64,000 bases of DNA from Shigella phage phi25-307: sequence record MG589383. One strand, written 5' to 3'. Of this stretch, positions 2,524-52,840 are shown in pieces (the first letter of the stretch is position 1; each line of letters begins with the position of its first letter). Under the pieces are notes generated by a model. That model was not told where the DNA came from and made no database searches. It saw only the letters and a program-made list of their open reading frames with translations. A program made the position numbers and the translations under genes.

Positions 2524-3688
2524 CGAAATCTTCCATTTCGTCAAGGTCGTTTTCTATATCTGCTGCAGACGGAGCATCAGAAGTTTTAACCGGAACTTTA
2601 GTTGTTGCTTTGCAATTAATAAGGTCGTTAACAGCGTCATCAACTTCTTTAATAGAAGAGATAGCACCTAGTTTATATTTAGTTTCAATTGCATCTCGGA
2701 AAGGTTTGTGTTTAAACAACGGCCCCCAGAATTCTACACAATCAGTAGCTTTAGCACGCCATGATTTCTCTTCACGAATCATTTCGCCCGTTTCTTCGTC
2801 AAGGAATTCTCGAGCATACCAACCAGCTTTAGGCTTAACCACAAAACCAATTTCAGTTGCCATTTCTAACAAGCCACTGAATGGGTCGATACCACCATCG
2901 AAATTAACCGTGATTGGGAAAGTAGATTTCTCTTTAACTGTACGAGATTTTTCTGCTTTCAACGTGAAGTCATAACCGGTCAATTCTGTACCTTCTTTAA
3001 CCTGACGTTTAGAGATAAAGAATACGGTGTTAGCAGAGTAAAGAATACCTGTACCACCACCCATAATCTCTTTAGGATACAATCCGCCGATTTCCATTGC
3101 TGTATGGTTGATTGCAACACATGGAATATCTTTAATAGTCAGATAAGGAGTCACAATGCGGAACAGAGATTTAAGTGCCTTAGCACGAGACATATCACCT
3201 ACAACTTTCTCGTTCAACGCATCTTCGGTTTCTTTCTTAGATGCAGTATTACCGATTGAATCGATAAAGATAATAACTTTATCACCGCGTTCAATCGCGT
3301 CAAGCTGATTAGTCATATCAACTTTAAGTTGTTCGACAGATTGAATCGGAGTATGAACTACACGGTCTAAATCAACACCCATTGAACGAAAATAAGATTC
3401 TGAAGCACCAAATTCTGAATCATAGAACAAACAAATTGCATCTTTATATTTCTTCATATATGCTGCAACCATGGTCAGCCCAAACAACGTTTTAAAGTGT
3501 TTAGAAGGAGCAGCAAAAATAGTTAAGCCTGATTGCAACCCGGCATTCAGTGCACCACCTAATGCAATATTCAACATCGGAATACGAGTAGGGACTTCAT
3601 CGCGATTATTAAACAGCTTAGACTTAGTCAAGTCTGCAGTCATTTTAGAAGTAGAAGCTTTAATCAGACGAGATTTTAAATCAGACAT
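2516..3688 (-). CDS. uvsX: UvsX recombinase (RecA/Rad51 family)
   Basis: 390 aa; MSDLKSRLIKASTSK... N-terminus and acidic C-terminal tail as in T4 UvsX. Confidence 0.95.
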   Translation of the reverse strand: MSDLKSRLIKASTSKMTADLTKSKLFNNRDEVPTRIPMLNIALGGALNAGLQSGLTIFAAPSKHFKTLFGLTMVAAYMKKYKDAICLFYDSEFGASESYFRSMGVDLDRVVHTPIQSVEQLKVDMTNQLDAIERGDKVIIFIDSIGNTASKKETEDALNEKVVGDMSRAKALKSLFRIVTPYLTIKDIPCVAINHTAMEIGGLYPKEIMGGGTGILYSANTVFFISKRQVKEGTELTGYDFTLKAEKSRTVKEKSTFPITVNFDGGIDPFSGLLEMATEIGFVVKPKAGWYAREFLDEETGEMIREEKSWRAKATDCVEFWGPLFKHKPFRDAIETKYKLGAISSIKEVDDAVNDLINCKATTKVPVKTSDAPSAADIENDLDEMEDFDE

Positions 3689-3788: not shown

Positions 3789-4337
3789 TTAACGAGCCCA
3801 TTTGATAATTTCTGTAATCAAATAATTACGTTCGCTTGCATTAAATCCTATAACTTTGTTAGCACCGTCATGATTAAGTAATTGATACGTTTGGATTTTG
3901 TTATGAATTGCAAACTCTTCAAAATATGAAATGACTGTATTAAAACCGAATGAAGACAAAGTAATAAGATCGTCTTCAAAACTTTCAGTCATTTCGTTAC
4001 GTGTTAAAATAATTGTGAACACATCATGGTTTTGGCAAAGACGAACATAATCCTGTTCATAAACGTCAAGAACCGAGTCCGCATCTTGTCGAATACGTCC
4101 ATAAACCCAGTTACTAATATATCCACGGTCTAACAGATAAATCTTAGTAGGGTCTAAATAATTCAACATCGTTTCGAAACAGCCAACTTCATTTCGAGAC
4201 TTAACATCGAAACGTCCATTAACTGTTCGTTTAGGGAAATCAATCTTTACATATCTTTCACTAATTTCCATTATGTCATTAATGAAAGTTGTTTTACCAG
4301 CATTATCCGGGCCATCTACTAAAATAATTTTAGCCAT
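3789..4337 (-). CDS. P-loop kinase-like protein (nucleoside/nucleotide kinase fold)
   Basis: Walker A VDGPDNAGKTT near N-terminus; 182 aa; sits at the T4 bgt locus. Confidence 0.6.
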   Translation of the reverse strand: MAKIILVDGPDNAGKTTFINDIMEISERYVKIDFPKRTVNGRFDVKSRNEVGCFETMLNYLDPTKIYLLDRGYISNWVYGRIRQDADSVLDVYEQDYVRLCQNHDVFTIILTRNEMTESFEDDLITLSSFGFNTVISYFEEFAIHNKIQTYQLLNHDGANKVIGFNASERNYLITEIIKWAR

Positions 4338-4338
4338 T

Positions 4339-5238
4339 TTATTCCTCGATTACGACATCTTCGTATTTAGGTATATTATACGGTGAAGAAATTAAAGCAT
4401 TAAAGTAGATGAACTCACCAAGACCTGGATGGAATACTTCTTCAGGATTTTCGAAATATTGAATCTTCGGTCGTCCTTTAAGAATTTGATAGTACTCAGT
4501 TTTAGTTGGTTTAAAAATTCGAATCAGCGCTTCTTCAGGATACTTATTTCTGTCGAAGCTATTATTTGGATCGGTTATATAAAGCGGTTGACCTAATTGA
4601 ATTGCACATTCAACCACTTGTTCAAAACGATAGCACGGGTCACTAATTCGAAATGGATGAAAAATACCATCTAGATGAATAGGAGCCAAATCACCTACAA
4701 GACGCTGCATGATGGAAGGACGTATAACTTTCTGGGTTACGATAATCTTATTACCATCGGCACCAGCGTTAACCAGCACTTCCTTTTGACGTTTATTCAA
4801 CACAGTAGTTTGAAGTGAACGATTAACCGACAACATATCGGTTTTTAAGAATTCGTCAATATAAAAACGTGGTTTATTAGGGTCTGCAGTGATATTGAAA
4901 TTGAATTCCACATCAAAAGCGCCGTCATATCCAGTGATATCTGTGATTAGAAAATCACAATCATAATAAGCAATTAATGAATCAACCACAAATTCATTTT
5001 CAGACCAGAAATATTTACGAGTGTTATACGCGTTATCTTTATACCATAATGGAACAAACTTAAATTCTGGGAAAAGACGTTCACATTCTTTAATATCAGA
5101 TGCATTACGTGGATATGTAATCACATCACCCGGATTAGCACGGTGCAAATGAAGTTGGAAGTTGCCATCCTTAAGGATAGCGTACTGTCCAGTTTCATAA
5201 GACCGCATACTCAAGATAGGTACGCGGAAAATAGCCAT
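4339..5238 (-). CDS. hypothetical protein at bgt locus; candidate DNA sugar transferase
   Basis: 299 aa ORF; start overlaps gene 42 stop as TAATG; no known motif, function inferred from position only. Confidence 0.55.
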   Translation of the reverse strand: MAIFRVPILSMRSYETGQYAILKDGNFQLHLHRANPGDVITYPRNASDIKECERLFPEFKFVPLWYKDNAYNTRKYFWSENEFVVDSLIAYYDCDFLITDITGYDGAFDVEFNFNITADPNKPRFYIDEFLKTDMLSVNRSLQTTVLNKRQKEVLVNAGADGNKIIVTQKVIRPSIMQRLVGDLAPIHLDGIFHPFRISDPCYRFEQVVECAIQLGQPLYITDPNNSFDRNKYPEEALIRIFKPTKTEYYQILKGRPKIQYFENPEEVFHPGLGEFIYFNALISSPYNIPKYEDVVIEE

Positions 5239-5954
5239 TAGTCAAGGAATCCTTTAACATAATCAAAATCACGTTCAAACACATGGGCACTTACCATGGT
5301 ATGAGTATAATCACCAACTTCTACACCGCATTCGTTAGCGATATAATGAAGTAATTTTCCTTGGAGATAAAAATCCAACTGCATAACAACAGCACAGTTC
5401 TGAGAACGCATATGACAGTGGGTATAAAGCTTACCATCACGAATATAATAAGTCACTGAGTCAGTACATGGATATTCAAGCGTTTCGTCTGAATCAAGCA
5501 AAGCCTGATCAGAACTTTCTAGAATTTGGAACACAACTCTTCGAGAGTTAGGCTTCTCTTTAAGTTCTTTTAGAAGAGCTGGTAATTGGGCCACAATGCG
5601 AGGACCATAGAAAGTGTTGAAGTTCGCCGGCAAAACATCTGATTTTGGTTTAGAAATAAATTTAGCGACATTAGGATATGCCTTAAACGCTTCTTCTGCG
5701 TTGGTACCACCAGAAATCATAAACTTCCAGAAGTCTTCGGCATATTCATAAGAGATGCGGTTAATACGTGGGTCGGTCATTTTGAATGTTGACGGGGTAT
5801 CAACAACTACTGTCATAGACCCAATTTCATTACAACGTCCAATACGAGAATCAGTTACGAATTCCGGGTTTTCTAAAATTTCACGATTGACTGCTTTAAA
5901 TGCGGTTTGAAAATCTGCGGCTTTGATATATTTCATTGTGTTATGTTTTCCCAT
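5238..5954 (-). CDS. 42: dCMP hydroxymethylase (thymidylate synthase superfamily)
   Basis: 238 aa; C-T-D-S-V-x-Y-Y-IRDGK...MRSQN...HVF pattern matches T4 gp42 catalytic region; RBS GAGGTAAAC. Confidence 0.8.
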   Translation of the reverse strand: MGKHNTMKYIKAADFQTAFKAVNREILENPEFVTDSRIGRCNEIGSMTVVVDTPSTFKMTDPRINRISYEYAEDFWKFMISGGTNAEEAFKAYPNVAKFISKPKSDVLPANFNTFYGPRIVAQLPALLKELKEKPNSRRVVFQILESSDQALLDSDETLEYPCTDSVTYYIRDGKLYTHCHMRSQNCAVVMQLDFYLQGKLLHYIANECGVEVGDYTHTMVSAHVFERDFDYVKGFLD

Positions 5955-5973
5955 GTTTACCTCAATACAATTT

Positions 5974-5998
5974 ATTATATACTCAATTCGTAAAGCTT
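5974..5998 (-). promoter_or_regulatory. middle (MotA-type) promoter candidate upstream of gene 42
   Basis: minus strand AAGCTTTAC - 11 nt - TATAAT. Confidence 0.35.
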
Positions 5999-6233
5999 AT
6001 TTGAATTTCTTGACAATGTTGATATAACGTAAAGCTTCAGCATCGATACTTCCAAGAACACTATGAAGAAATGCATCAGCGTAGTATTCCAATTGAACAG
6101 GTTTCTTTAATCACTTTAGCCGCTTTAGTTTCAAACAGGCCCATCAGGGCCTTTTTAAGAATTTGTTCATTAGTGTTCAGTTTCATAGTCAAAATCTCTT
6201 CATTAAGTTGGTGGTTAAAAGTTTTTCTAGAAA

Positions 6234-7394
6234 TCATTCCGGGTACCTCAAAGCGTCATCAGAGTTAGTTATATCAATAATAGATATAGAGTTTTCTGCT
6301 AACCCATTTTTAGATAACTGACGTTTATAATATCTTTCACAATATGTACACGTCGTCCCGCAGATTTCATTAGCACAATCGAAATCTGGATGTCTGAACC
6401 ACCTTTTTTCTAAAAAGCCATCTAACAAAGAGGTTTCAATATTTACTGTATGTGAAAACTCAGTTTCATTTTCAAGAGTGAAAATAGTCTCTAAAGGCTT
6501 CCACAGTTCTAACAAATTACCTTCAAACTTTTCAGAAGCGTATGCTTCAAGAACTTTCAAAATGTAGTCTGTGCTACCTGTACGTCCTGAAACTTTGAAT
6601 TGAGTGATACCAATATCATTATAAAGTTTCAAATCTTGAGGACGAACAAAACGAGTTCTCAGCCAGTTAAATGGGTCTGTATCACGAGCTTTAATGCAGT
6701 GTTGCATTGGATATCCATTTAAGGATTTAGCATCATCAGCTGTAACATCAGTACTATGGAAAATATAGCAAGAGTCACGATAGCTACAATGTGTTGTATA
6801 CCCTTTACCAGCATTAGAACAGAACTCATTTACAAGAACTTCAAATATTATATTGTTCTTATTGCAAAACTCTGCTGCACGCTTCAGGAAAGAAACTGAA
6901 CGGTTCTTATGAATTCCACAGCAGACCTTTTTGATATTATACTGGTCATGCAAGTATTTGATTTGAGTTACAGCATCGACATGTAGAATTGTTGAAACTT
7001 CAATCTCAATGTCTTTATTGACTTCACGAACAATTTCCATAACAACAGGGTTAGCGATAGTAATACGCCATACGCCTATTGACCAAAGATACTGAACATA
7101 ATCCTGAATAGCTTTCTTCTTCCACTCAACTAGTTCTCTTTTTGAACCAGGATTTATCGTGTTGAGTGTATAGTTAAAGCAAATACCTAATTCGTTACAA
7201 CGTTTAACGTAATCTTCTAACATCTTTTTGTCAACGTCAGGAAGCCTAAAATCAGGTCTGGCTGCTACAAAAGCCATTTCTCTTGTAGAGCCGTATACTT
7301 CGTTTATCAAGCTATTAGGATAAGTTTTATTGAGCTCTACGATTTTATCAAGAAGAGCTAAATCAAAATTCGTTCCGATTTTAAAAGTATTCAT
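6234..7394 (-). CDS. hypothetical Cys-rich protein (386 aa) at imm locus
   Basis: long ORF; C-terminal cysteine cluster CANEICGTTCTYC; possible metal or Fe-S binding enzyme. Confidence 0.6.
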   Translation of the reverse strand: MNTFKIGTNFDLALLDKIVELNKTYPNSLINEVYGSTREMAFVAARPDFRLPDVDKKMLEDYVKRCNELGICFNYTLNTINPGSKRELVEWKKKAIQDYVQYLWSIGVWRITIANPVVMEIVREVNKDIEIEVSTILHVDAVTQIKYLHDQYNIKKVCCGIHKNRSVSFLKRAAEFCNKNNIIFEVLVNEFCSNAGKGYTTHCSYRDSCYIFHSTDVTADDAKSLNGYPMQHCIKARDTDPFNWLRTRFVRPQDLKLYNDIGITQFKVSGRTGSTDYILKVLEAYASEKFEGNLLELWKPLETIFTLENETEFSHTVNIETSLLDGFLEKRWFRHPDFDCANEICGTTCTYCERYYKRQLSKNGLAENSISIIDITNSDDALRYPE

Positions 7395-7453
7395 TTTTTA
7401 CATCTCGCGTTAATTGATGCGATGGTTTTTTTTTGCAGGTCTTACTTAAATTA

Positions 7454-7840
7454 TTATAGATTCGGTTTATATGATTTAAATGTTTCGAATTCGCCTTTAT
7501 TCATAAGAGCTTTGAATTCGTCAGGACGCATAGCTTTGTCGTCGATAATCCAATCATATACTGGTTTATGTGTTAGCAAATTATGGTACTTCAATCCAAT
7601 GTTTGCCAAGTTCTGAATCAGACTTGGGAGAATGTCAATTGCTATACGACCAGGACCTACTGACTTCATACCGCGAGCAGTGTAAAGCGTTATGGTATGC
7701 CCTGCATCATACAGGGCATTAATGGCAGACACCATTTCGACGTCTGGTTTGAAGTTCACGTAATCACGATTGTTATTCCACTCTGTTATACAATCATCGA
7801 CATCAAAACAAAGATTAAGCATGTTTTTTACACGGTGCAT
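7454..7840 (-). CDS. HAD-superfamily phosphatase-like protein
   Basis: FDVDDC (DxD nucleophile motif), LYTARG, conserved K, WIIDDK; ATG overlaps upstream stop as TAATG. Confidence 0.55.
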   Translation of the reverse strand: MHRVKNMLNLCFDVDDCITEWNNNRDYVNFKPDVEMVSAINALYDAGHTITLYTARGMKSVGPGRIAIDILPSLIQNLANIGLKYHNLLTHKPVYDWIIDDKAMRPDEFKALMNKGEFETFKSYKPNL

Positions 7841-9525
7841 TAGATTCGTTCCCATTGATGAGTGATATCGCCACCGATTGGACGATAAGAAACACCAGTT
7901 TCTTTATCAGTTAGTACCCATTTACCAGGATTTTTTGTAATCAGAGTAGCCGTTACAGGTTCTGCTACATCATAACTAATAGTGCCGTCCTGAAGTACAC
8001 GGCCCATATTACGTAATTGCTTAGTCAGAAGTTCCATACCTTTATAATATGCGGCTACCGCTTTAAGTGGATTATTCTTGAAATAACCACCTAATGCAAT
8101 CCAGATAATTGCTACAGCCAAATGATGATACTCATTAAACGAACTCATCTTTCCATATTTGTAAACTAATGGATTGATGTTAATAGTCACATTACAAGTT
8201 GTTTCATCAATAGTAAACTGTCCCCAGGTCGGATTAGCATTGAATTCATCATAACCTGAAACAGCATAAAGCACTTTAGCTTCATCATACAATTTTGGCC
8301 CGTAAATCTTGGTTTCACCAAAATATCCACGAGGGTCGATAAACTTGACTTCACCATTATCAGTAATCATAGTATTACTGAAGTTTGGGTCACCATGAAT
8401 AACAGAGTACTGTCCCTGAGAACGGTTATGATAACGAATAAGGTGTTCTAAAGCTTGTTTCAGCATTGGCTTCAGACGCCCAATCTTAGTGTAGTTCACA
8501 TGTGTGATTTTACCGAATGAATCAATCAATGGTTGAATACTTTCACAACGATCAATAACTTTCGTATAGAACTCTTTAGTGAAATCACGGCGAACAGTTT
8601 CAGGACTTACAAAATAAGTGTCTGTGCTGAATTTCAGTGCATCTAAAATTGCATCAACAATTTGTGGACGAGCAAGACTTGATTTGGATTTAATATATTC
8701 AAATGCCGGCTTACCTTTAATGCGTTCCATTTCAAAGTTATTTTCATTAACAGAAACTAACTGAGGAACTGAATCTGATTTCACTTTAAGATACCATGAA
8801 ATCTCATCTTTCTGAAGAGCTCGACCCTGTTCGGTTAATGCGAATTTAGTTACAGTTTCTTCACCAATTTCAACTGCATTAAAACTACGATTAAGTTCAC
8901 GAACTTCATGAGCTTTTTCAAGTTTAGGCATATCACCTAAATCAATTAGATTCATAAGCTCTGATTTATTGAATGCGCTGCCGTAAAGGAATTCTACGAA
9001 ATCACGTCCTTTGCAGTATTCATGAATTTCCTCATCAGTAGAACCCATATAGAATTCCCAGTCTTTGAACTGATAAATTCCTACAACATTACCACCTGTT
9101 GAACCTACATTAGTGATATTTTCACCGTCGAAATTATATCGACATTCGTCACCCTTAACATAGATTGCGTTAACATTCCAAGACCATGAACCAAAATCAG
9201 GAATAATATCACACCAGTTAACAATTACATTATGGCCGTCTAAATCTTTGTGTAATTTAGCAAGAGCATAAGCAGAACCATACGCTTCATCAACTGTACG
9301 AATAGTCACATTGAACCCTTCTTGCTCACAATAAGCTCGAACAGTTTCAGCAAATTTTGAATGAACTACTACAATAATTTCATCTGCACCAAGGTCAGAA
9401 TAAATTGTATACAAATTGCTCAGAATAGTGTCTTGTTTATAGTTAACAAGCACCTTAGGAATATGATGTGTTATTGGATACAAACGAGTTGCCAGTCCAG
9501 CACCAAGAATAACAGCTTTTTTCAT
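7840..9525 (-). CDS. bifunctional sugar-1-phosphate nucleotidyltransferase / sugar kinase
   Basis: N-terminus ILGAGLATRLYPIT..IPK (GxGTRLxPxT NTase signature); C-terminus HGDPNFSNTMI...FIDPRG (APH/choline-kinase Brenner motif). Confidence 0.85.
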   Translation of the reverse strand: MKKAVILGAGLATRLYPITHHIPKVLVNYKQDTILSNLYTIYSDLGADEIIVVVHSKFAETVRAYCEQEGFNVTIRTVDEAYGSAYALAKLHKDLDGHNVIVNWCDIIPDFGSWSWNVNAIYVKGDECRYNFDGENITNVGSTGGNVVGIYQFKDWEFYMGSTDEEIHEYCKGRDFVEFLYGSAFNKSELMNLIDLGDMPKLEKAHEVRELNRSFNAVEIGEETVTKFALTEQGRALQKDEISWYLKVKSDSVPQLVSVNENNFEMERIKGKPAFEYIKSKSSLARPQIVDAILDALKFSTDTYFVSPETVRRDFTKEFYTKVIDRCESIQPLIDSFGKITHVNYTKIGRLKPMLKQALEHLIRYHNRSQGQYSVIHGDPNFSNTMITDNGEVKFIDPRGYFGETKIYGPKLYDEAKVLYAVSGYDEFNANPTWGQFTIDETTCNVTININPLVYKYGKMSSFNEYHHLAVAIIWIALGGYFKNNPLKAVAAYYKGMELLTKQLRNMGRVLQDGTISYDVAEPVTATLITKNPGKWVLTDKETGVSYRPIGGDITHQWERI

Positions 9526-9706
9526 GTTGTGGTCCTCATTGGTAAGTAGGAGTATTGTACACTATTCTAGTTAAAGCATTCATACTTTGCTTGTAGTCCA
9601 ATCATAATCCATCCAATTACAAGTGTTGGAATCATTACCGGAGCCGTTAAGCTCCAGTAGATAGTCATGACAAGCATCAATAGTAAAAGTCCTATTGTTA
9701 TTGCTT

Positions 9707-10342
9707 TCATTGTTCGCCTCGTAACATGGCACCTAGTGCACCGCCAGGGTGGAACTTAAGGAAGTCATTAGAGGTAAATCCACGTTCAGACGAAAGGTTG
9801 ATAGCAAACGTATCGATAAGCGCTAACAACAATGTAGTGGACATAGTCGGAGCCAGAGAATTCTCATCAACCTCTACTGCGATGCCTGTACAGAAAGAGT
9901 AATCAAAAAGGGCTTCATTTTCTTGTGGAATGTCTGGGTTACAATGCAACAGAATCTGTTTGACGTTCGGACGAATCATTTTAAGATGCTTAGCCACACC
10001 TATCATTTCTTCAGTTTTACCAGAACGACTAATATGAATCAACACATCATTAGGCGCAATGAATCCTGCATCACCGTGAGAATAATGCCCGGTGTTCAAG
10101 TACATACTCGGGATACCGAGTGAAGCAAATGTCTCAGAAGCTTTAGTTGCAATATTAGCATTCTTACCAACACCTGTAATAATTACTCGGCTTTCATAAT
10201 TACTAAGTCCCGGACGTCGAAGAGTTTCTAGAATAGCATTATAACGAGCAGGGTTTTGACTAATTACTTTGGCCATAGCGGCCAAAGAAGAAGATTGTTT
10301 TATGATTGCGTCAATAGCGATAGTAATAGGAGTAGTTTTCAT
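9707..10342 (-). CDS. SIS-domain arabinose-5-phosphate isomerase (KdsD/GutQ family)
   Basis: ITGVGKNANIATKASETFASLGIPS...HGDAG...ISRSGKTEE...HPGGALG aligns to KdsD SIS core. Confidence 0.85.
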   Translation of the reverse strand: MKTTPITIAIDAIIKQSSSLAAMAKVISQNPARYNAILETLRRPGLSNYESRVIITGVGKNANIATKASETFASLGIPSMYLNTGHYSHGDAGFIAPNDVLIHISRSGKTEEMIGVAKHLKMIRPNVKQILLHCNPDIPQENEALFDYSFCTGIAVEVDENSLAPTMSTTLLLALIDTFAINLSSERGFTSNDFLKFHPGGALGAMLRGEQ

Positions 10343-10382: not shown

Positions 10383-13094
10383 TCAAAAATCGAACATATC
10401 GAACAGAGATGCTTTCTTCTCGTAATCGAGTTTCGCTGCTGATGTGAATCCTTCAAGTGGTTTAATAAATGTCTTCTCAAGGAGAACAGTGTAGTCCATC
10501 CAATGAAGTACGTCGTCTTTAATTAAATCTGTGATTTCAGTACCAGAAGGCCATGCGATACATTTATCACCGAATGGGTTTCCTTCACGTAAAGGCAGAA
10601 CATATACTTTTTCACCTTCTACAACTTGTGGTGCATCGATATTACCTTTGATAGCACGGTTATACGTCAGAATTCCACGAATATGGAACGGGCATTTGGG
10701 ACCAGGGAATCCACCTACATCGTATTTAGCAATGTTATTCGCAGAAGATACCGACGCGATGCTAATATAATTCAATTGACGGAATTCTTTTTCAAACTCT
10801 TTAAAATATTCTTGTAATGATTCTTCACCTTCTTGAAGCATACGACGAATACATTCTTTAAGAGCTTTCTGTACTGCTTTAGGAGTCGAAGATTTCTGAG
10901 TCTCTAGACCCATGATTTTGAGTTTAGGCTCAGCGTAACGAGTACCTTCCATATCCCATACGTTTAATGCATAACGTTTCTTACCAGTCCAGAATCCACC
11001 AATACCTTTAGAACCAAGTGGAGGCCCAGCGATAGCTTCTCGGTCCATGAACATTAAGTGTTGTTTATTGTTCATGTATTCACACATTTCACGGAAACCT
11101 CTATCAATAGCTGGTTCCATACGTTCACGTGCAAACTTATCTAAGAAGTCTACCCAATGGTTGGTATCACGGAATTTAGATTCACCAACCTTATCGATAA
11201 TTTTATCAGCAGATACGTAAATAGAGTCTGTATCACCATAAAGAACGAAAGCTTCACCTTCTGTACCGCAAACTTCATTCAGATATTCATTAACTTTACG
11301 TTCAATCCACTGTAAAGCCATTTGTCCGAATGTTGTGATTGCAGTAGCATTACGCAAATCATAATAACGGAACCAAACGTTGCCAAGTGCACCATAAAGT
11401 GAGTTGATAAGCAATTTACGGTTAATTTGGGCAGTCATACCTGCAACTTCAGTACGTTGAGCTCTAAACAACATTTCATTAAGAGATTTAGCAGACAACT
11501 TTTTAATCTTTTCTTTAATCTCATCGCTGAAGTCGAAACGATAATCAACATCTAATGGTTCGTCAACAGAAAGATTAGGATTATGCAATGCCTCTTTAAT
11601 TATTTCACCATTACGTTGAGCTGCAAGCATGTAACCTTTATGTTCTTTACGTTGATTAAAGACCTTAGTGATTTCAGTTGGAACTACACCATCACGGTCT
11701 TTATAATACATCATGCCGTTAGGAGAACAACTGTACACATCAGAAGGACGTTCAGCAACAGCGTTAATATAATCATGCAATGGAGCTACTTTAAACGTTC
11801 CTGCTATTGTTTCTGGGCTAATATTCACTTGGCGAATAATACTTGGATACAGAGATGTAAGGTCGAAACTCATTACATATTTGTATCGATTTGGAATAGG
11901 TTCCTTAACAAAAGCGCCAGGATAAGGTTGAACCGGGTGAGAACGACCTTGTGGAATCACCTTGTTCTGCTCTTTAAGGCTATTAAAAATAATAGCATCC
12001 CATGTTTTAATTGGGCTAAATACAGATTGAATCTGAATTTTAGCATAATAACCCATGTCCAAACTCAAGTTGATGAACTGACGCTTAGCATCAATTTGCA
12101 ATACACGATACACATCGATAATGTTATAAGAAATATATCGTTGGTGATTGCTTTCACGAAGCTTAGAAATAGGGCCGTCATATTTCAGTTTACCAACGTT
12201 CAATTCAAATTCTGAAATGTAATCCAGAGAATATGACGGTTGATTGGTAAAAGAGAATTTTTTGTAAAGGTCAATGTAATCAAGAACAGAGATACCGAAC
12301 AATGTAATGATTTCACGAGAACCATACATGTTTTCGATAACTTTAACACGAGTTTTACGATGTGGTGATAAACGTTTCGCAGTAGATTCGCCAAAAATAT
12401 TCTTGATTCGGTTATACACATACGGAATATCAAATGACTCAACGTTCCATCCAGTCAAAATGACAGGAGTTTTCTGTTGCCAGAAGTTGAGATATTCCAT
12501 CAACAATTCTTTTTCGTTATCGAACGGCATATAAATGATTTTATCGATAATTTCGGATGGAACTTCATCACCACCTTGTTCTTGAAGCTTAGCCGCAATT
12601 TCGATAGACCATTCTTCTACATTACCATATGGAGAATTCAATAGATCAAATACGTAGAACCTGTCGTCAATTGAGTCATAATGGGTGATAGCATCAATCG
12701 GATGTTTTGCTTGTGAAGGCTCAGGGAACCCATCCGGAGATGTTACTTCGATGTCGAAGTTAGCCGCACGAATTTTTGTATGGTCGTATTTGATTTCATA
12801 GTTATAAGTGTCAGACAAATACGCCAATTTGAAATCGTCCATGCCAAGTGCTTCAAGACCGATATCTTCCATGCGTTTAATCCATTGGGAGGCATCACGC
12901 ATATTAGCGAACAACTTACGAGTACACGGCTTACCGTAGATATCGAAATATTTCGTAGCCTGACTTTCCGGACAATGAGCAAACAGTGATGGTTTATATT
13001 CTACTTCACGAGTACGTTCACGGCCGTTAGAATCGATGTAACGTTCAAAAATTGAATCACCAATCTGTTCAACCGTTAAGTAAAATTCTTTCAT
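10383..13094 (-). CDS. 43: DNA polymerase gp43 (family B)
   Basis: 903 aa; exo motifs FDIEV, NIIDVYRVL; YGDTDS polymerase motif; matches recalled RB69 gp43. Confidence 0.97.
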   Translation of the reverse strand: MKEFYLTVEQIGDSIFERYIDSNGRERTREVEYKPSLFAHCPESQATKYFDIYGKPCTRKLFANMRDASQWIKRMEDIGLEALGMDDFKLAYLSDTYNYEIKYDHTKIRAANFDIEVTSPDGFPEPSQAKHPIDAITHYDSIDDRFYVFDLLNSPYGNVEEWSIEIAAKLQEQGGDEVPSEIIDKIIYMPFDNEKELLMEYLNFWQQKTPVILTGWNVESFDIPYVYNRIKNIFGESTAKRLSPHRKTRVKVIENMYGSREIITLFGISVLDYIDLYKKFSFTNQPSYSLDYISEFELNVGKLKYDGPISKLRESNHQRYISYNIIDVYRVLQIDAKRQFINLSLDMGYYAKIQIQSVFSPIKTWDAIIFNSLKEQNKVIPQGRSHPVQPYPGAFVKEPIPNRYKYVMSFDLTSLYPSIIRQVNISPETIAGTFKVAPLHDYINAVAERPSDVYSCSPNGMMYYKDRDGVVPTEITKVFNQRKEHKGYMLAAQRNGEIIKEALHNPNLSVDEPLDVDYRFDFSDEIKEKIKKLSAKSLNEMLFRAQRTEVAGMTAQINRKLLINSLYGALGNVWFRYYDLRNATAITTFGQMALQWIERKVNEYLNEVCGTEGEAFVLYGDTDSIYVSADKIIDKVGESKFRDTNHWVDFLDKFARERMEPAIDRGFREMCEYMNNKQHLMFMDREAIAGPPLGSKGIGGFWTGKKRYALNVWDMEGTRYAEPKLKIMGLETQKSSTPKAVQKALKECIRRMLQEGEESLQEYFKEFEKEFRQLNYISIASVSSANNIAKYDVGGFPGPKCPFHIRGILTYNRAIKGNIDAPQVVEGEKVYVLPLREGNPFGDKCIAWPSGTEITDLIKDDVLHWMDYTVLLEKTFIKPLEGFTSAAKLDYEKKASLFDMFDF

Positions 13095-16548: not shown

Positions 16549-18237
16549 TTATGAAACAGTCATTACCGTAAATCGTCCAACTTTGCTCATCTGAAGATGC
16601 TGTCCATACCGTTGAGGGTCATGGTCTCGATGAGAGATAATGAACACATTAGTATTTTGTAAACTTCCAAGAATGGTATCTATAGCCTTAACAGCCTCAG
16701 AATCGACAGCGCCATCAAAAACCTCATCAAGAATCAGAGTGTTGATTTTAACACCAGAGACCTTTTCAGCAATATCTCGCCATGTAAACAACAATGCGAT
16801 ATCGATACGCGCTTTTTCGCCTTGACTAAATGAAGCATAACTGAACTCTTCACGGCCACGTGATTTTATAGATTCATTGAATTCTTCGTCAATAGAAAAC
16901 ACGTAATCAGCTTCCATGATTTTAAGATAATGGTTAATCTGCTTGTTGAACAGAGGCACATATTTTTTAATGATAGCACCTTTAATACCAGAATCTTTTA
17001 ACATATCTGTGATAATACCACGATGGTATTTTTCAAGAACGATATCCGATTTTGTTTTAATGATTTTATCAAGTTCTTTTTGAAGCAAAGCTATCTCATC
17101 AACATGGTCGATAAATTCCGCTGAGGCTTGTTCTATTGCAGCTTTAACTTTCTTAGCTTTATCAATAGTGGCAATCATTGCTTGTTTCTTGGTACGAATA
17201 TCAGATGCAAGGTCCTGTTTAGTCTTAACATTAGCTCTATATTCGTCCACTAGGACACTCAGATTATCTCTGTGGCATGTAAGTTGCTCGAATGAGTGAT
17301 TACATTCGTGAAGCTTATCGGTAATCTTAGAGACAATAGGATCACCCTGGTGCAACTGCGATGCACAAGTAGGACATGTACCACCATCATGATACATCTT
17401 AATAACTTTGTTATACGAGTCAATTTTAGATTTAATCAAGAATGCTTCTTGTCCTATCTTGTTGAATGCCTCAGTAGGGTCTTCATCAAGAACGATATTA
17501 AGTAGTCGCTCATTAGCTTCTTCGATTTCTGCTTTTAATGAACGAGCTTCTTTGGCTAGGTCGTCATACATGTTCTGTAGACGCGCTACGTTATCACCAG
17601 ATAATTTCTTTTGACGTTCGATATTCTCGTTATAAATCTTAATTTGTTGGATAATACCATCTTTCTTGGCATCGAGAACTTGTCCCTGGGAATTAAGTTC
17701 TCGAACTTGAGACTTATTGATTTTATCCATTTCAGCGAGTGTGCCGACTTCTAAAAGGTCTTCGACAAGTTTTCTGCGAGCAGGGGTGCTAAGAGCCATG
17801 AAAGGGGTATACCCTGCCGTCCCAAGCACAACGATTTGTTTAAAAGACGCGTATGACATTCCGATGCTACGTTCAAATTCTTCTTGGAAGTCACGACTGC
17901 TGGCAGATTCATCAAGACGAACACCGTCAACGGAGATTTCGAAAATATTGGGCTTTTGGCCACGTTTAATGAAGTATTTTTTACCATCGAATTCCATCCA
18001 AAGCTCAACTAAGAGCCCTTTCTTGTTCGTGCTATTAATGATTTGCCCTTTCTTAACATCACGAAATGGTTTACCGAAAAGTCCGAAAGTAATGGCTTCT
18101 AACATCGTAGATTTACCACCACCATTTTTACCAGTGATTAATGTCTTTTGGACTTTATCTAATTGGATATCAATAGGATTCCCACCTACCGACATGATGT
18201 TTTGATAACGAACACGATTTAATTTAAATGATTTCAT
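16549..18237 (-). CDS. 46: gp46 recombination nuclease ATPase subunit (Rad50/SbcC-like)
   Basis: 562 aa; Walker A GKNGGGKST at N-terminus, coiled-coil middle, CxxC hook CPTC, Walker B/D-loop LILDEVFD at C-terminus. Confidence 0.9.
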   Translation of the reverse strand: MKSFKLNRVRYQNIMSVGGNPIDIQLDKVQKTLITGKNGGGKSTMLEAITFGLFGKPFRDVKKGQIINSTNKKGLLVELWMEFDGKKYFIKRGQKPNIFEISVDGVRLDESASSRDFQEEFERSIGMSYASFKQIVVLGTAGYTPFMALSTPARRKLVEDLLEVGTLAEMDKINKSQVRELNSQGQVLDAKKDGIIQQIKIYNENIERQKKLSGDNVARLQNMYDDLAKEARSLKAEIEEANERLLNIVLDEDPTEAFNKIGQEAFLIKSKIDSYNKVIKMYHDGGTCPTCASQLHQGDPIVSKITDKLHECNHSFEQLTCHRDNLSVLVDEYRANVKTKQDLASDIRTKKQAMIATIDKAKKVKAAIEQASAEFIDHVDEIALLQKELDKIIKTKSDIVLEKYHRGIITDMLKDSGIKGAIIKKYVPLFNKQINHYLKIMEADYVFSIDEEFNESIKSRGREEFSYASFSQGEKARIDIALLFTWRDIAEKVSGVKINTLILDEVFDGAVDSEAVKAIDTILGSLQNTNVFIISHRDHDPQRYGQHLQMSKVGRFTVMTVS

Positions 18238-18488: not shown

Positions 18489-18717
18489 TACACGCTTCAG
18501 CCATTTTAAGAATAGAGCCAGGAGTATCGTTGTCCATTATATTAAAGCTAAATTCAATAGCCCAGTCAGTGTAGACATGAACTGCTTTAACTTCATTGCC
18601 TTCAACGCGTAATGGCTCAATCCAATACTTGATAGTGTTCTCGAATCCATCATCATCTTTAACGTCCATTTCAACTTCAAGCCTGAGTCCAGCATTGTTA
18701 AATTCATCTAAAGTCAT
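18460..18717 (-). CDS. hypothetical protein (85 aa)
   Basis: ORF between 46 and 47. Confidence 0.45.
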   Translation of the reverse strand: MTLDEFNNAGLRLEVEMDVKDDDGFENTIKYWIEPLRVEGNEVKAVHVYTDWAIEFSFNIMDNDTPGSILKMAEACIEDAYNDED

Positions 18718-19733
18718 TGTGTTGCCTCGATATAAAGTTCATTGGAATATTTGACCAGCGCTTCTCTGTCTTCGTCTGAGATATCTGGAATCGCGTCAAT
18801 ATATTCTTTAATGATATCTTGAAGTGATTTAATCTCGATTTCCTGGTCATCATCAGATTCAACGCTGTTATCAACTTTAGAAACCATACGAAGAGAGTGA
18901 ACTACTTTTTCAAGTTCAGATTCAAACTTAGTCAACTCTGAATCAATTTCTGATACTATAACACGTACGGCTAGATTAGTATAATCAGAATAATTGATTT
19001 TGCCTTTAAACGGATAAGTGATTCGTCGATGCCATGTTGTTTCATTAGGAATAAATTCCATACGTTCAACATCAGTGTCAAATACCCAGAATCCGCGTGG
19101 GTCGTTTTCATCACCTGCAGTAAGGGTCCATGGTGTCCCAATATATTTGACGTTAGCAGCTTCAGAGATTGTGTGGAAGTGGCCGGACCAGACTTGTTTA
19201 TAGGTCTTTAAAAAATCAGGTTCAAGCCCATGAGACTTCATTCCTTTATAGAAATAAAAACCATTCAGTTCCCAGTGCCCAACACAATACGCGGCAGAAG
19301 AAGTCTTGATGTGCTCTAAGATTTCACCAGTATTTTCTTCGCACATCCAAGGAATTAAATCAATCAAACATCCGTCAAAATCTACTGTAGTAGGCTTATC
19401 ATATACTTTAACATTAGGATATTTAGCTAAAAGCTCAGTAGAAGCGTTTGGAGTTAAAGTATTTTTAAAGTGCATATCATGGTTTCCTACAACAGTATGT
19501 AGGGTAATACCAGCATCATCAAGCATTTGAACTATTTCACGTGCGAACTCCATAGTTTTATGCGTGATTGCTTTTCGCACATCAAAAATATCGCCGTATT
19601 GAATCCATGTAGTAATTCCATTTTTCTTAGAATATTCTATCGCCTGCTTAATTCCATCCAACTGAATGGATTGAACCCACTCATCATCGGCTTTAACACC
19701 TAAATGCCAATCACCTAAATTTAAAATTTTCAT
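18714..19733 (-). CDS. 47: gp47 recombination nuclease (Mre11/SbcD-like phosphoesterase)
   Basis: 339 aa; N-terminal D-x-H (LGDWHLG) and GNHD calcineurin-like motifs. Confidence 0.9.
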   Translation of the reverse strand: MKILNLGDWHLGVKADDEWVQSIQLDGIKQAIEYSKKNGITTWIQYGDIFDVRKAITHKTMEFAREIVQMLDDAGITLHTVVGNHDMHFKNTLTPNASTELLAKYPNVKVYDKPTTVDFDGCLIDLIPWMCEENTGEILEHIKTSSAAYCVGHWELNGFYFYKGMKSHGLEPDFLKTYKQVWSGHFHTISEAANVKYIGTPWTLTAGDENDPRGFWVFDTDVERMEFIPNETTWHRRITYPFKGKINYSDYTNLAVRVIVSEIDSELTKFESELEKVVHSLRMVSKVDNSVESDDDQEIEIKSLQDIIKEYIDAIPDISDEDREALVKYSNELYIEATQ

Positions 19734-19779
19734 ATTATTTCCTCATTAGTTAATTCATTCTATCATCCGTTTATAAAGC

Positions 19780-19806
19780 AAAAAAAAAGGAACTCCGAAG
19801 AGTTCC
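19780..19806 (-). terminator. rho-independent terminator (GGAACUC-UUCG-GAGUUCC + U9)
   Basis: perfect 7 bp stem, UUCG tetraloop, nine-T run on minus strand. Confidence 0.65.
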
Positions 19807-20018
19807 TATCCACATAGTACACCGTACAGAGGCTCATTTGAACTTTTAAATCTAATGGGCTTGTATGTAATAGTTCCTTCGGCTTTAGCTTTATCATAAG
19901 ACTCTTTAAAACGTCTCATTCTTTCTGCTTTGCCTTTACGGATTTTATCGAAATTTTCAGAGGTCATGTCGTTCGTCATGCATAATCACCTCTCAGAAAA
20001 TACCTAAATCGATTTCTC

Positions 20019-20240
20019 TCATCGTTTCCACCATTTCTTAACTTGAAATGAATCAACCCATACGAGTTGTTTTGGGTCTGCCTTTACAATAGGTGGACAA
20101 ATTTCTGTAATAGAACCGTCGTGATATTCCTTTTCAGAGATTTTAACACAAAGAGGACCTCCCAATTTAAGGGTGAACCCTGCGTTCAGCTTCAGACGTT
20201 TAAACTTTGTTTGAACTAGCGCCATTAATGATGTCCTCAA
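20019..20240 (-). CDS. hypothetical protein (73 aa)
   Basis: small ORF in the 47-55 interval. Confidence 0.4.
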   Translation of the reverse strand: MRTSLMALVQTKFKRLKLNAGFTLKLGGPLCVKISEKEYHDGSITEICPPIVKADPKQLVWVDSFQVKKWWKR

Positions 20241-20523
20241 TAGCCTGACGAGTAGTAACCCACTGGATTTTAATTAACTTGTCATTATATGGTTGTCGTA
20301 GAATATCCCGAGATTTCTTAATAGCATATTCGTAAGCTTCGAAGTTGTTTTGAATTGCTGCTTCTTGAGCATGAGCATAAAGACGGTTTAGTTCAAAACG
20401 ATTCTTTTTAAGAATCTTTTCGGATTTTTTACGTGCTTCAGCTTCATTTTTCTTTTGGATTTCTTGTAGCATTTTAGCTACTGCATCTTCTGCTTCTTTA
20501 TTTTCAATAATCTCGGTAGTCAT
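20200..20523 (-). CDS. hypothetical protein (107 aa)
   Basis: small ORF in the 47-55 interval. Confidence 0.45.
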   Translation of the reverse strand: MTTEIIENKEAEDAVAKMLQEIQKKNEAEARKKSEKILKKNRFELNRLYAHAQEAAIQNNFEAYEYAIKKSRDILRQPYNDKLIKIQWVTTRQAIEDIINGASSNKV

Positions 20524-20524
20524 A

Positions 20525-20734
20525 TTATCTCATTAAATTAAAATAAAAACGTCCGTCCTCTTCAATACAGAACTCATACTCAACCGGAGTCCCATTTATC
20601 GAAAATGACACGTCATGTGGGTTCAAAGGGTCGATGTCAAAATTAATTTTAAATTCACGACCCAACAGTTTTACCAAATAAGGTATTGCTTCGTCAAAAG
20701 GTTCTTCTAAGTAGTTAGAGATGTCAATTGTCAT
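20525..20734 (-). CDS. hypothetical protein (about 70 aa)
   Basis: start trimmed to internal ATG so it does not overlap gene 55. Confidence 0.4.
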
Positions 20735-21281
20735 CCTCATATAAAAAATCCAAACTAGGCGAATCGCTAACAACTTCCTTCTTTTCAGCCCCAGGAGCTT
20801 TATAAGCGGATTCTTCATAATGCGTCATTTTATCGTAGATGTCTTGAATAAACGTTTCATCTACCAACGCTACCATATCATCGTCATGACTGTCGTAGAC
20901 ATTATGAACGAAGTAACTATATTTCTTTGCAACTTCCTTACGTTCTTTTTTGATACGTTGGACAAAAGCATTAAAACAAGCTCTAGTTATGTATGCATGT
21001 GGGTTATTGTACTTAGTTTCGTCGAAATTATGAAGTCCCTTAATAGAGGCTTCAATCCCATCTGCAATCATCTCCTGCTTCCAAGACTGGGTATATCCTG
21101 AAAAGTTGAAACGTTTGGACAGGCCTTCGGCGATAAGCATAATTGCTAAACCGATTGTATCATTCTGACGAATAATTTTGTTTGGGTCTTTATTATTTAA
21201 GAGCTCCTTTTTCCACTCGATTATAGCGGCGAGAAGCTCTTTATTATTCACATAGTTATTTTTAGGTTTTTGTTCAGTCAT
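20724..21281 (-). CDS. 55: gp55 late-transcription sigma factor
   Basis: 185 aa; ...NYVNNKELL...[55 protein letters not shown]... matches T4 gp55. Confidence 0.95.
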
Positions 21282-21436
21282 AAGTACCTCTTAGCTCAAT
21301 TCATAGGTCTATTATATCATAATATTTAGAGACCTATCTTAAAGCACGAGATACTACCAAAGATACGTAACTTTCATAAAATTGTCGACTTAAAATTCAC
21401 CAAACTTTTATTCGGTTATAGTAATTCGAGATAGTT

Positions 21437-21664
21437 TCATTCTAGTTCCTTTGCTGCTTCAAGAGCAGCATCCAGCGAATCAAATTGGTCAACGAAATCA
21501 ATATTCAACGCATCGTCAACCGTAGCATATAACCACCATTGTTTGAATTCGTATTCTAGAATAAATCCAGGCCCTTCAATCTGAGGAAGACCTAGGCTAT
21601 TTGTACCAACTTCGTAACCAGCTAGACGCAGGTCATTAATCAAAGTTTCTGTTAATACGCTCAT
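21437..21664 (-). CDS. hypothetical protein (75 aa)
   Basis: ORF. Confidence 0.45.
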   Translation of the reverse strand: MSVLTETLINDLRLAGYEVGTNSLGLPQIEGPGFILEYEFKQWWLYATVDDALNIDFVDQFDSLDAALEAAKELE

Positions 21665-33430: not shown

Positions 33431-34411
33431 TTATTTCAGTAAAGTTACTTCAGAGATTTCCTCCCAACCATCTTTATCAGTTGAAATAAAATCTGCTACG
33501 TAAAGAGCCGTACGTAATGATACATTGCGAAGACGAGATACGTTAGCCTTCATCCAGGACAATGCTTTATACGTTTCTGCATCCGTCAGACCACGTTTCT
33601 GCATCATGTCAGTAGATAATATTACATCTTCAACTCGAACCATAATCTCTTCATTAGAGTGTACTCCAAGGTCGAGATACACTGAACGAGATACTAAAGC
33701 TTGAAGGTGTGGGGCAAGTTTCGAACCGCGTTCTAACTCTTTATCGATATCAACGTTAGTAATGAAAACGATAGTACCTTCAAACTCAAATTCTTTATCA
33801 ATACCCTTATCATCGAGATAAGATGACGCAGTGCTCCAACAAACTTTGCGTTTATCTCCGGTATCTAATGCTGCTTTAAGAAGGTTCAAGATGTCCATAT
33901 CTGAGAATACGTCAACGTCGTCGATTAAGAGAACGCTGTCTGCATCACGGTTGAGCCAAAGTTGTTCGTAAAGGCCAATACCAGAGATTTTACCATTAAT
34001 GCTTTTGTATTTGATGAAACCGTTATCATTAGCATTATTAAGTGCTTTATCCAGAGAATACGTCTTACCAATACCAGCTGCACCTGAAATAATGAGTGAA
34101 CGAATTTTACCATCGATAATGCCATTCGTCATCATGTTCATTACTTTAAAGCGTTTGTTGATACGAGTTTTCATATCTTCAGTGCTTTCAACAACTGCAA
34201 CTGGTGACGTCTCAACTCTTTCCATTACGATGTCTGATTTGAAGACCCATACTCCACGTTCAGAACCATCAATCATAACGAAAATTTTACCATCACCTAA
34301 GTGGGAACATTCAGGATTAAGCTTTGCCGGGAACCAGGTCTTTGTGGCAACATAAGAACCAGAGATTTCGTTATTACGATAGATACCTTTTTTGATTTGA
34401 ACGTTGAACAT
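33431..34411 (-). CDS. P-loop NTPase (326 aa)
   Basis: Walker A GAAGIGKTYS, Walker B LLIDDVD; ATG at 34411 with RBS GGAGAA. Confidence 0.6.
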   Translation of the reverse strand: MFNVQIKKGIYRNNEISGSYVATKTWFPAKLNPECSHLGDGKIFVMIDGSERGVWVFKSDIVMERVETSPVAVVESTEDMKTRINKRFKVMNMMTNGIIDGKIRSLIISGAAGIGKTYSLDKALNNANDNGFIKYKSINGKISGIGLYEQLWLNRDADSVLLIDDVDVFSDMDILNLLKAALDTGDKRKVCWSTASSYLDDKGIDKEFEFEGTIVFITNVDIDKELERGSKLAPHLQALVSRSVYLDLGVHSNEEIMVRVEDVILSTDMMQKRGLTDAETYKALSWMKANVSRLRNVSLRTALYVADFISTDKDGWEEISEVTLLK

Positions 34412-34449
34412 TTTATTCTCCAATTTACTCATTTCGTTTCGATAGGTCT

Positions 34450-35120: not shown

Positions 35121-36110
35121 TTATTTATAGTAAGAATTATGATTTTCGAGATAGACTTGTTCAAGGAAGTCATCCCAGAAACTCATATCTACTTTTTGTT
35201 GCATGCCGTTCTTGGCAGCTTGTTCTGATGCTTGTTCAACTTGGTCAACGATATCTTCTAGGAATTCTTGTACAGTTTTAAATGTATGTTTACCAAGCTT
35301 AACATCGAGAATAAATGGAGCATCCTGAAGTGGGTAAACCAGGTCGCCTGTTTTGTAAATTTCCAATAATTGAAGTCCACCACGACATGCATGACTCAAT
35401 GCTTTCCAGTCAATACCTTCGTTAGCTTCTGCCTTACGAGCACGTTCACCATAGTTCTCTTCCAGTTTAACCAGGATGGCATTGAACTCTTTATTGGTTA
35501 ACGTGTCTTGGAATTTACGGTCTAACAGATTATAGAATGTTTGCTTACCTGTTTTCTCGTTTTCAGTTTCAATCCACGAAGCAAATTCACCTACGGGCAG
35601 AACATTCTTCATATGTGATAAACGAATTACTGCACCATTATCAAAGTATTGTCCCCATTCATTAGAACGTTTAAGGGCTTGACGAAGAACAGCCAGTCGA
35701 GAACCCTTGACGCCGTATTTAGAAGCTTGCTTACGAACATACCCTAAATAAGATTTCATGTTAGTAGTATAGAAACGAGACCTGTTGTCTTGAATATACT
35801 TCCACACGTCAGGCAAATCAGATTTAACTACTAAACTTGGTGGAGTGTGAAGCATATCTAATGCGACGGTTTCACCATCCGCAGCTAGTTTAAAGAAATA
35901 TTTGAGACTATACAACTCATGGTCCACGTCGTCTTTTGTGTTCTTAGAAGATGTGTTATTCGTGTTCTTGCTCATATGTTCTTTAACGTTACCGGTCAAG
36001 ATGTCACGAGCATGAGGGACGTAAATTTCTTTAAAATCAACGTCAGATTCAGGAGTAGACGTTCCATAAAGGTGGCTACCAAAGTAGCCTTTCATAATTG
36101 TTTTCATCAT
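35121..36110 (-). CDS. nucleotidyltransferase-fold protein (329 aa)
   Basis: N-terminal YFGSHLYGTSTPESDVDF = GS...G...TPxSD[IV]D Pol-beta-type NTase motif. Confidence 0.6.
   Translation of the reverse strand: MMKTIMKGYFGSHLYGTSTPESDVDFKEIYVPHARDILTGNVKEHMSKNTNNTSSKNTKDDVDHELYSLKYFFKLAADGETVALDMLHTPPSLVVKSDLPDVWKYIQDNRSRFYTTNMKSYLGYVRKQASKYGVKGSRLAVLRQALKRSNEWGQYFDNGAVIRLSHMKNVLPVGEFASWIETENEKTGKQTFYNLLDRKFQDTLTNKEFNAILVKLEENYGERARKAEANEGIDWKALSHACRGGLQLLEIYKTGDLVYPLQDAPFILDVKLGKHTFKTVQEFLEDIVDQVEQASEQAAKNGMQQKVDMSFWDDFLEQVYLENHNSYYK
35122..35129 (-). promoter_or_regulatory. late promoter TATAAATA
   Basis: exact T4 late -10 consensus on minus strand about 33 nt upstream of ATG at 35089. Confidence 0.5.
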
Positions 36111-52832: not shown

Positions 52833-52840
52833 CATTATTT

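Follow-up and report, generated by a model that had tools for sequence, protein, structure and literature searches.

No alpha-glucosyltransferase gene between genes 47 and 55 of Shigella phage phi25-307, and a predicted arabinosyl-5-hydroxycytosine pathway at the b-gt/42 locus

The 64,000-nucleotide stretch of Shigella phage phi25-307 DNA analysed here (sequence record MG589383; hereafter, the window) carries no alpha-glucosyltransferase gene, a-gt, between genes 47 and 55, where T4 has it. The window comes from an RB69-like (Mosigvirus) phage with a T-even genome of the RB69/JS09 type. We consider it very probable that this genome lacks the a-gt module and has, at the locus occupied by b-gt and gene 42 in T4, a pathway for arabinosyl-5-hydroxycytosine instead. 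Such a phage would need neither a-gt nor b-gt, because no hydroxymethylcytosine (hmC) would be made. The gene content, the orthology relationships, the active-site signature, and the GT-B fold described below were computed in this work, as was the lack of a-gt, b-gt, and ba-gt; what is said about the chemistry of RB69 DNA and about the activity of its gp48 comes from the literature.

The region from 47 to 55 is 99.0% identical to that of Escherichia phage vB_EcoM-RPN187 (RPN187), 98.5% identical to that of JS09, and ca. 94% identical to those of other Mosigvirus phages. At least 80% of a 2.6-kb query spanning 47 to 55 was covered by 145 records, and the taxonomy lines of matching records give Mosigvirus. 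RPN187 aligned with the whole window at 95-98% identity across most aligned stretches. Positions 40000-64000 were covered at 100% by no phage record, and the window is a mosaic within the genus, since no record matches the whole of it exactly. The visible part of phi25-307 amounts to 64 kb, and claims concerning the remaining ca. 105 kb rest on RPN187, which was compared over positions 1-166,999 of its 167,158 bp.

All genes in the 46-55 part of the window, including gene 46 itself (16549-18237), are located on the minus strand. The interval is bordered downstream by gene 47, which codes for an SbcD-like recombination endonuclease subunit (18714-19733; a 339-residue open reading frame, ORF, with a Pfam Metallophos match and annotated as gp47 in JS09 and RB69), and upstream by gene 55, which codes for the late sigma factor (20724-21281; a 185-residue ORF annotated as gp55 in JS09, RB69, and T4). 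The 990 bp between them contain four ORFs, while the initial annotation of this DNA had counted three, overlooking the 57-codon one. A similarity search of the small ORFs, which that annotation had proposed as a check, returned homologues of T4 a-gt.2 (57 residues, 19806-19979; 75% identity; Pfam DUF5486, E 4e-28; PHROG 2140), a-gt.3 (20019-20225; 71% identity; PHROG 1648, E 2e-34; so annotated in JS09 and RB69), a-gt.4 (107 residues, 20200-20523; 58% identity; Pfam DUF2654, E 1e-27), and a-gt.5 (69 residues, 20525-20734, overlapping the end of gene 55; 47% identity; Pfam DUF5491, E 5e-13). The a-gt.3 homologue had been described as a 73-codon ORF, which is correct for the longest reading, from a TTG at 20240, but relatives annotate the ATG at 20225, which gives 68 residues. 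Three of the four ORFs fall into Pfam families built on T4-like phage proteins, all four belong to PHROGs of unknown function, and a search of the literature for functions of a-gt.2 to a-gt.5 gave passing mention only.

That a-gt is missing from this interval, as initially annotated, is borne out: tblastn searches of the window with T4 a-gt, 47.1, and mobB gave matches at chance level (best E values of 0.28-0.53; 0.53 in the case of a-gt). The possibility that the small ORFs stand in for a-gt was considered and rejected, because T4 carries all four of them beside its a-gt. A pseudogene remnant of a-gt was likewise rejected, because only 72 bp (19734-19805) separate a-gt.2 from 47, and a terminator, a promoter-like site, and a Shine-Dalgarno sequence take up this space. 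We conclude that, despite their names, a-gt.2 to a-gt.5 are conserved neighbours independent of a-gt.

Comparison with other phages supports this conclusion. The gene order in T4 (NC_000866) is 47, 47.1, a-gt, mobB, a-gt.2, a-gt.3, a-gt.4, a-gt.5, 55; in Klebsiella phage Mineola (Jiaodavirus), it is 47, terminator, a-gt, a-gt.2 to a-gt.5, 55; and in RB69, JS09, and the window alike, it is 47, terminator, a-gt.2 to a-gt.5, 55. The three orders therefore differ cleanly in whether the a-gt module is present. The T4 locus shares with the window both flanking genes and all four small ORFs (47-75% identity), and differs from it by ca. 2.2 kb of extra DNA containing mobB, a-gt, and 47.1, the only parts that the window is missing. 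Mineola shares 55, a-gt.5 to a-gt.2, and the terminator in front of 47, but has a 66%-identical a-gt that separates a-gt.2 from the terminator, and neither mobB nor 47.1. RB69 (NC_004928) has the gene order and the 47/a-gt.2 intergenic region of the window and is also devoid of a-gt, b-gt, and ba-gt.

In the window, the b-gt/42 locus (3789-10342) lies between uvsX (2516-3688) and gene 43 (10383-13094), where T4 has segA, b-gt, 42, imm, and imm.1. Seven genes are found there instead, all intact, all on the minus strand, and 98-100% identical to RB69 genes from gp45 to gp55. The first codes for a P-loop nucleotide kinase (3789-4337; 98% identity to RB69p045) with weak dTMP-kinase hits, its role being taken from Table 1 of PMC13326640. 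It is followed by a predicted arabinosyltransferase gene, a homologue of RB69 gp46:47 whose 299-residue product is assigned to the GT-B-fold glycosyltransferases (4339-5238), by a gene for a thymidylate-synthase-like, predicted 5-hydroxy-deoxycytidine monophosphate (5-hydroxy-dCMP) synthase that takes the place of gene 42 (5238-5954; homologue of RB69 gp48), and by a gene for a U32-family protein with clustered cysteines (6234-7394; homologue of RB69 gp50; Pfam Peptidase_U32, E 7e-11). The remaining three code for an AfhF-like HAD-type sugar phosphatase (7454-7840; homologue of RB69 gp51, 98% identity to RB69p051; NCBIfam capsule biosynthesis phosphatase, E 4e-13; role from the literature), an AfhE-like bifunctional sugar-1-phosphate nucleotidyltransferase/kinase of 561 residues (7840-9525; homologue of RB69 gp53_52, 99% identity to both RB69 halves; Pfam NTP_transferase and weak kinase-family matches, all below gathering cut-offs; role from the literature), and an arabinose-5-phosphate isomerase with a SIS domain (9707-10342; homologue of RB69 gp55, 99.5% identity to RB69p055; Pfam SIS; NCBIfam KpsF/GutQ, E 2e-32, and KdsD, E 7e-31). 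Thus, the isomerase, kinase/nucleotidyltransferase, HAD phosphatase, nucleotide kinase, and GT-B genes expected of an arabinosyl-5-hydroxycytosine cluster are all located together between uvsX and 43.

The cluster differs from the RB69 record in that 046/047 and 052/053 are split in the latter, while the window has single ORFs of 299 and 561 residues. The splits have been published as sequencing errors (PMC6024577; PMC13326640), and the intact ORFs at 4339-5238 and 7840-9525 support this view. The cluster also resembles the Afh pathway of HY126 and gp76-83 of DLP3, which have in common a thymidylate-synthase-like hydroxylase, an ORF003c-type glycosyltransferase (9iqz; matched by the RPN187 protein), an AfhE-like bifunctional enzyme, an AfhF-like phosphatase, and an arabinose-5-phosphate isomerase. 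DLP3 differs in having three glycosyltransferases and tri-arabinosylation, and no U32 homologue appears in its gp76-83 gene list, unlike in the window cluster.

The identity of the modified base follows from the thymidylate synthase (TS) homologue at 5238-5954, the only gp42-like gene in the window. Its product matches Pfam Thymidylat_synt (E 1e-15) and is 98% identical to RB69 gp48 (RB69p048), versus 25% identity to T4 gp42 (E 7e-11). It also matches the 238-residue crystallised chains 9iqc/9ir2, labelled 'Thymidylate synthase', with E 7e-160; the chains probably belong to the HY126 homologue, a crystal structure of which is cited in PMC13326640. In an alignment (ThyA numbering), the protein has the YPC, RSQN, and QLD motifs and a glutamate at position -3, and carries the substitutions D169N, N177D, and L143E, so that the TS fold and the catalytic cysteine are combined with the three changes that together form the signature of 5-hydroxy-dCMP synthases. 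The dCMP hydroxymethylase gp42 is recognised by D169 together with D177, and the window protein does not have this pair; D169 is kept in T4 gp42, phage td, and E. coli ThyA (the td and gp42 rows, taken from the phage loci, show this contrast). D169N has been put forward as a predictor of 5-hydroxy-dCMP synthases (Lee et al. 2026, PMC13326640). According to the same work, RB69 gp48 makes 5-hydroxydeoxycytidine (5-hydroxy-dC) with oxygen derived from O2, as seen by 18O2 incorporation, and in RB69 DNA, mono- and di-arabosyl groups are attached to 5-hydroxycytosine itself and not to hmC. Because of the D169N signature, the 98% identity to gp48, and the activity and DNA chemistry reported for RB69, we predict that the base is not hmC and that the 5238-5954 enzyme produces 5-hydroxy-dCMP. 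Many phage records label the D169N TS homologue located beside the 299-residue glycosyltransferase 'dCMP hydroxymethylase' or 'thymidylate synthase', which misstates the predicted product.

The initial annotation had spoken of a non-glucose hmC modification. The sugar is indeed predicted not to be glucose, but the hmC part does not agree with the TS homologue. A scheme of this kind, in which a gp42 orthologue makes hmC and a non-glucose sugar is then attached to give arabinosyl-hmC, was proposed for RB69 in 2018, when arabinose was reported in its DNA and hmC was assumed to be the acceptor (Thomas 2018, PMC6024577). The distant relationship of the window TS homologue to gp42 agrees with such a scheme, while D169N, the near identity to an enzyme that made 5-hydroxy-dC, and the failure to find a second gp42-like gene in RPN187 speak against it, and we regard it as improbable.

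We next consider the transferase. The 299-residue protein has no Pfam hit and could be placed in no family at the sequence level. An AlphaFold2 model built on 59 homologues (pLDDT 95.4) shows a GT-B fold, and the protein is a remote structural relative of a-gt. RB69 gp46:47 is listed as the putative first arabinosyltransferase (PMC13326640), an assignment reproduced here, and the 299-residue protein would thus perform the first arabosyl transfer. A homologue of a second RB69 protein, ORF003c, was not found in the window (best E 0.11); in RPN187, it is encoded at 2520-3620 (98.9% identity) and matches 9iqz with E 4e-250.

Since the sugar specificity of these GT-B proteins is itself a prediction, the 299-residue protein or the ORF003c type could in principle use UDP-glucose, and the DNA would then be glucosylated by enzymes non-homologous to those of T4. 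The 299-residue protein is, however, encoded in an operon-like cluster with an arabinose-5-phosphate isomerase, a sugar kinase/uridylyltransferase, and a phosphatase; RB69 DNA contains arabinose rather than glucose (PMC6024577, PMC13326640); and the glycosyltransferases of DLP3 extended RB69 DNA with UDP-arabinofuranose (PMC13326640). Glucosylation by these proteins is therefore highly unlikely, more so than the arabinosyl-hmC scheme.

The statement in the initial annotation that b-gt is also absent, so that both T4 glucosyltransferases are lacking, agrees with our searches. In tblastn searches of the window and RPN187, T4 b-gt gave a best E of 4.8 and the T2-type ba-gt (RB27 query) best E values of 0.8-3.7; neither has a homologue there, whether from uvsX to gene 42/43 or at any other place. 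T4 a-gt reached a best E of 1.4 in the RPN187 genome, where 47.1 and mobB had no tblastn match either. The absence of a-gt, b-gt, and ba-gt homologues from RB69 was reported earlier (Thomas 2018, PMC6024577, section 3.2) and repeated by Lee et al. 2026 (PMC13326640). An a-gt or b-gt homologue, or any GT-B glucosyltransferase, elsewhere in the genome had been named as what would overturn the initial claim; no sequence homologue was found in RPN187, and GT-B proteins were found at the level of fold only. These are the 299-residue protein in the window and the ORF003c type outside of it in relatives, both predicted to be arabinosyltransferases and not glucosyltransferases. No glycosyltransferase family came up when 20 other large ORFs of the window (24-57 kb) were scanned with Pfam; this is weak evidence, because Pfam also misses the 299-residue glycosyltransferase.

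A search of 50,697 phage records with T4 a-gt gave 657 hits, with 502 at an identity of at least 90%, two at 80-90%, 143 at 60-80%, and 10 below 60%; sampled rows of the 60-80% band were Klebsiella and Raoultella phages at 65-66%, including Jiaodavirus Mineola. That a-gt and/or b-gt have merely moved to the ca. 105 kb of phi25-307 outside the window is the least probable of the alternatives, and very unlikely indeed: the window is a mosaic with respect to every database record, which leaves room for differences from relatives in the unseen part, and T-even genomes do exchange cassettes, but the RPN187 genome has no match at E below 1, the a-gt hits fall in a Tequatrovirus-type band (at least 90%) and a Klebsiella-phage-type band (60-80%), and a glucosyltransferase would have no hmC acceptor in a 5-hydroxycytosine phage.

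In the arabinosyl-5-hydroxycytosine pathway that we favour, the TS-like, flavin- and O2-dependent 5-hydroxy-dCMP synthase and the nucleotide kinase would supply the modified nucleotide. Ribulose-5-phosphate would be converted to UDP-arabinofuranose by the arabinose-5-phosphate isomerase, the bifunctional kinase/uridylyltransferase, and the HAD phosphatase. The GT-B arabinosyltransferase encoded in the window, together with a second GT-B protein of the ORF003c type, encoded near rIIA outside the window, would then attach the sugar, with the result that cytosine would be replaced by mono- and di-arabinosyl-5-hydroxycytosine. Several points weigh against this interpretation. By analogy, phi25-307 probably makes the same DNA as RB69, but the chemistry was determined on RB69 DNA. 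The individual arabinosyltransferases were inactive on 5-hydroxycytosine-containing DNA in vitro (PMC13326640), and for this reason, the role of the 299-residue protein as the first transferase remains a prediction. Sequence searches cannot rule out a glucosyltransferase too divergent to be recognised, as the lack of a Pfam hit for the 299-residue protein itself illustrates. Finally, what is said of the rest of the genome leans on a close relative (95-99% identity over aligned stretches), while the window is a mosaic.

It was published in 2018 that RB69-type phages have neither a-gt nor b-gt (Thomas), and arabinosyl-5-hydroxycytosine followed in 2025-2026 (including Lee 2026). The finding is therefore an ordinary one, all of it having been described for RB69-type phages already. 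Its practical value lies in annotation: phages with this arrangement of the 47-55 interval and a D169N TS homologue should not be annotated as hmC phages. What may be new is an association of the U32-family gene of the cluster with phage genes for chorismate mutase and DAHP synthase. Should this association hold, it would be of greater consequence.

The U32-family protein has cysteines at positions 192, 203, 209, and 233 and a C-terminal CX4CX3CX2C motif. Its relatives are RlhA (annotated '23S rRNA 5-hydroxycytidine C2501 synthase'), TrhP, and UbiU/UbiV, which carry out O2-independent hydroxylation with prephenate as the oxygen donor (PMC6599085, PMC10990095). In Lee et al. (PMC13326640), the RB69 gp50-type U32 gene appears only as a table entry, 'sugar or heterocycle reductase', without discussion, and the Thanatos paper does not mention the gene; a full-text literature search found nothing linking U32 to phage 5-hydroxycytosine. 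A chorismate mutase gene (114 residues; Pfam CM_2, E 2e-11), which occurs in 54 records, fills the slot that separates the U32 gene from the TS homologue in phages of Klebsiella, Yersinia, Proteus, Edwardsiella, and Shewanella as well as in Winklervirus (for example, at 7158-7502 of the sister-genus locus that was compared), and stop and start codons overlap at its junctions. In the window, the slot holds an ORF of 53 residues (6076-6237, minus strand) of the RB69 ORF049c type, which is shorter than the 79-residue ORF049 of RB69. It has no chorismate mutase domain and shares a few N-terminal residues with chorismate mutase (22% identity), of which, judging by these residues, it may be a remnant. 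A DAHP synthase gene is present in RPN187 and relatives, and was found in 211 phage records compared with 220 for U32, with matching host genera.

The co-occurrence of U32 with phage chorismate mutase and DAHP synthase suggests an O2-independent hydroxylase. Acinetobacter, a strict aerobe, is missing from the organisms listed with the U32 gene, although 57 Acinetobacter phage records carry the arabinosyltransferase. Two observations weigh against a hydroxylase role. The cellular U32 hydroxylases have a cysteine cluster for a 4Fe-4S centre; four cysteines of the phage protein are found in the homologous region, but with the spacing CX10CX5CX23C versus CX6CX15-16CX3-38C in the cellular proteins. 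Furthermore, the E. coli phage JS10 (Dhakavirus) has the arabinosylation gene cluster without U32. Pairwise BLASTP comparisons of the phage protein with E. coli UbiU, UbiV, TrhP, and RlhA gave no significant match; the K(V/I)(E/S)GR motif is conserved. That the U32 protein is a prephenate-dependent hydroxylase, providing a second, O2-independent route to 5-hydroxycytosine, is thus a tentative proposal that we think somewhat unlikely to be correct. If true, it would allow DNA hypermodification in the anoxic gut, a setting in which the TS-like hydroxylase, being dependent on O2 and flavin, cannot work. It would also explain, in a form open to testing, how an O2-dependent base modification can be made by gut phages when oxygen is lacking.

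The strong terminator noted in the 47-55 interval by the initial annotation was confirmed. It is located at 19780-19807 on the minus strand and consists of an 8-bp stem with a UUCG tetraloop (19788-19807; AGGAACUC-UUCG-GAGUUCCU) followed by a U run extending to 19780, and it overlaps the TAG stop codon of a-gt.2. The hairpin has a folding energy of -12 kcal/mol, with z = -3.6 relative to shuffled sequences for the 37-nt hairpin segment; only this segment was significant, folding of the whole 97-nt intergenic piece being uninformative (z -0.34). A GC-containing hairpin with a U tract directly after it, downstream of a stop codon, has the hallmarks of a Rho-independent terminator, and the element is predicted to terminate transcription. 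It is conserved in five Mosigvirus genomes and annotated as 'terminator' in PhAPEC2 and NRG-P0074. The 47/a-gt.2 intergenic sequence is invariant across RB69, JS09, 308Ecol101PP, and RPN187 except for the length of the T run (19780-19788), which, relative to the window, is three bases shorter in RB69, JS09, and 308Ecol101PP and one base longer in RPN187; this variation may be due to homopolymer slippage or sequencing error.

The U run is followed by a site resembling a MotA-dependent middle promoter, by a Shine-Dalgarno sequence, GAGGAAA, and by the ATG of gene 47. In MotA-dependent middle promoters, the consensus box (a/t)(a/t)TGCTT(t/c)A precedes a TAnnnT -10 element by ca. 12 bp. The gene 47 site fits this consensus: it reads TGCTTTA-N11-TAGAAT (19757-19780, minus strand) or, with the full box, TTTGCTTTA-N11-TAGAAT (19757-19782), and may serve as a promoter for genes 47 and 46. 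The pattern TGCTTYA-N11-13-TANNNT occurs 11 times in the window versus 1.95 times expected, an about five-fold excess; none of 100 shuffles reached 11 sites, and eight of the 11 are on the coding (early/middle) strand. Such sites are also found in the arabinosylation cluster, upstream of the kinase/glycosyltransferase genes (4375-4399) and of the bifunctional gene (9554-9578). A scan of 18500-21600 for sigma-70 promoters gave 14 sites, with 10.9 expected, and nothing outstanding.

T4 likewise has a UUCG hairpin and, behind it, a GCTTTA MotA-box-like site downstream of a-gt.2, and the same combination recurs after a-gt; the box is an exact TGCTTTA after a-gt.2 and AGCTTTA, with one mismatch to the searched core, after a-gt. 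The T4 mobB/a-gt module is therefore bracketed by direct repeats (2586-2630 and 4681-4735 of the T4 locus sequence). The window has a single copy of this hairpin-plus-MotA-box cassette, the downstream half of which resembles the T4 copy after a-gt. Recombination between the repeated cassettes could account for gain or loss of the a-gt module.

Several other features of the window were observed. Two tRNA genes are present (Arg-tct and Met-cat; 54372-54528) versus ten at the corresponding place in RPN187, and the segment at ca. 52340-55170 has no counterpart in RPN187. Screening of the large ORFs gave Pfam matches to anti-CBASS Acb1, an Acb2/Tad1 hairpin-domain protein, a Macro-domain protein, and an RlaP-like nucleotidyltransferase among five ORFs at 56434-56889, 41766-42200, 39675-40172, 35121-36110, and 33431-34432, one of which had AAA and helix-turn-helix (HTH) matches that were weak and below the cut-off.

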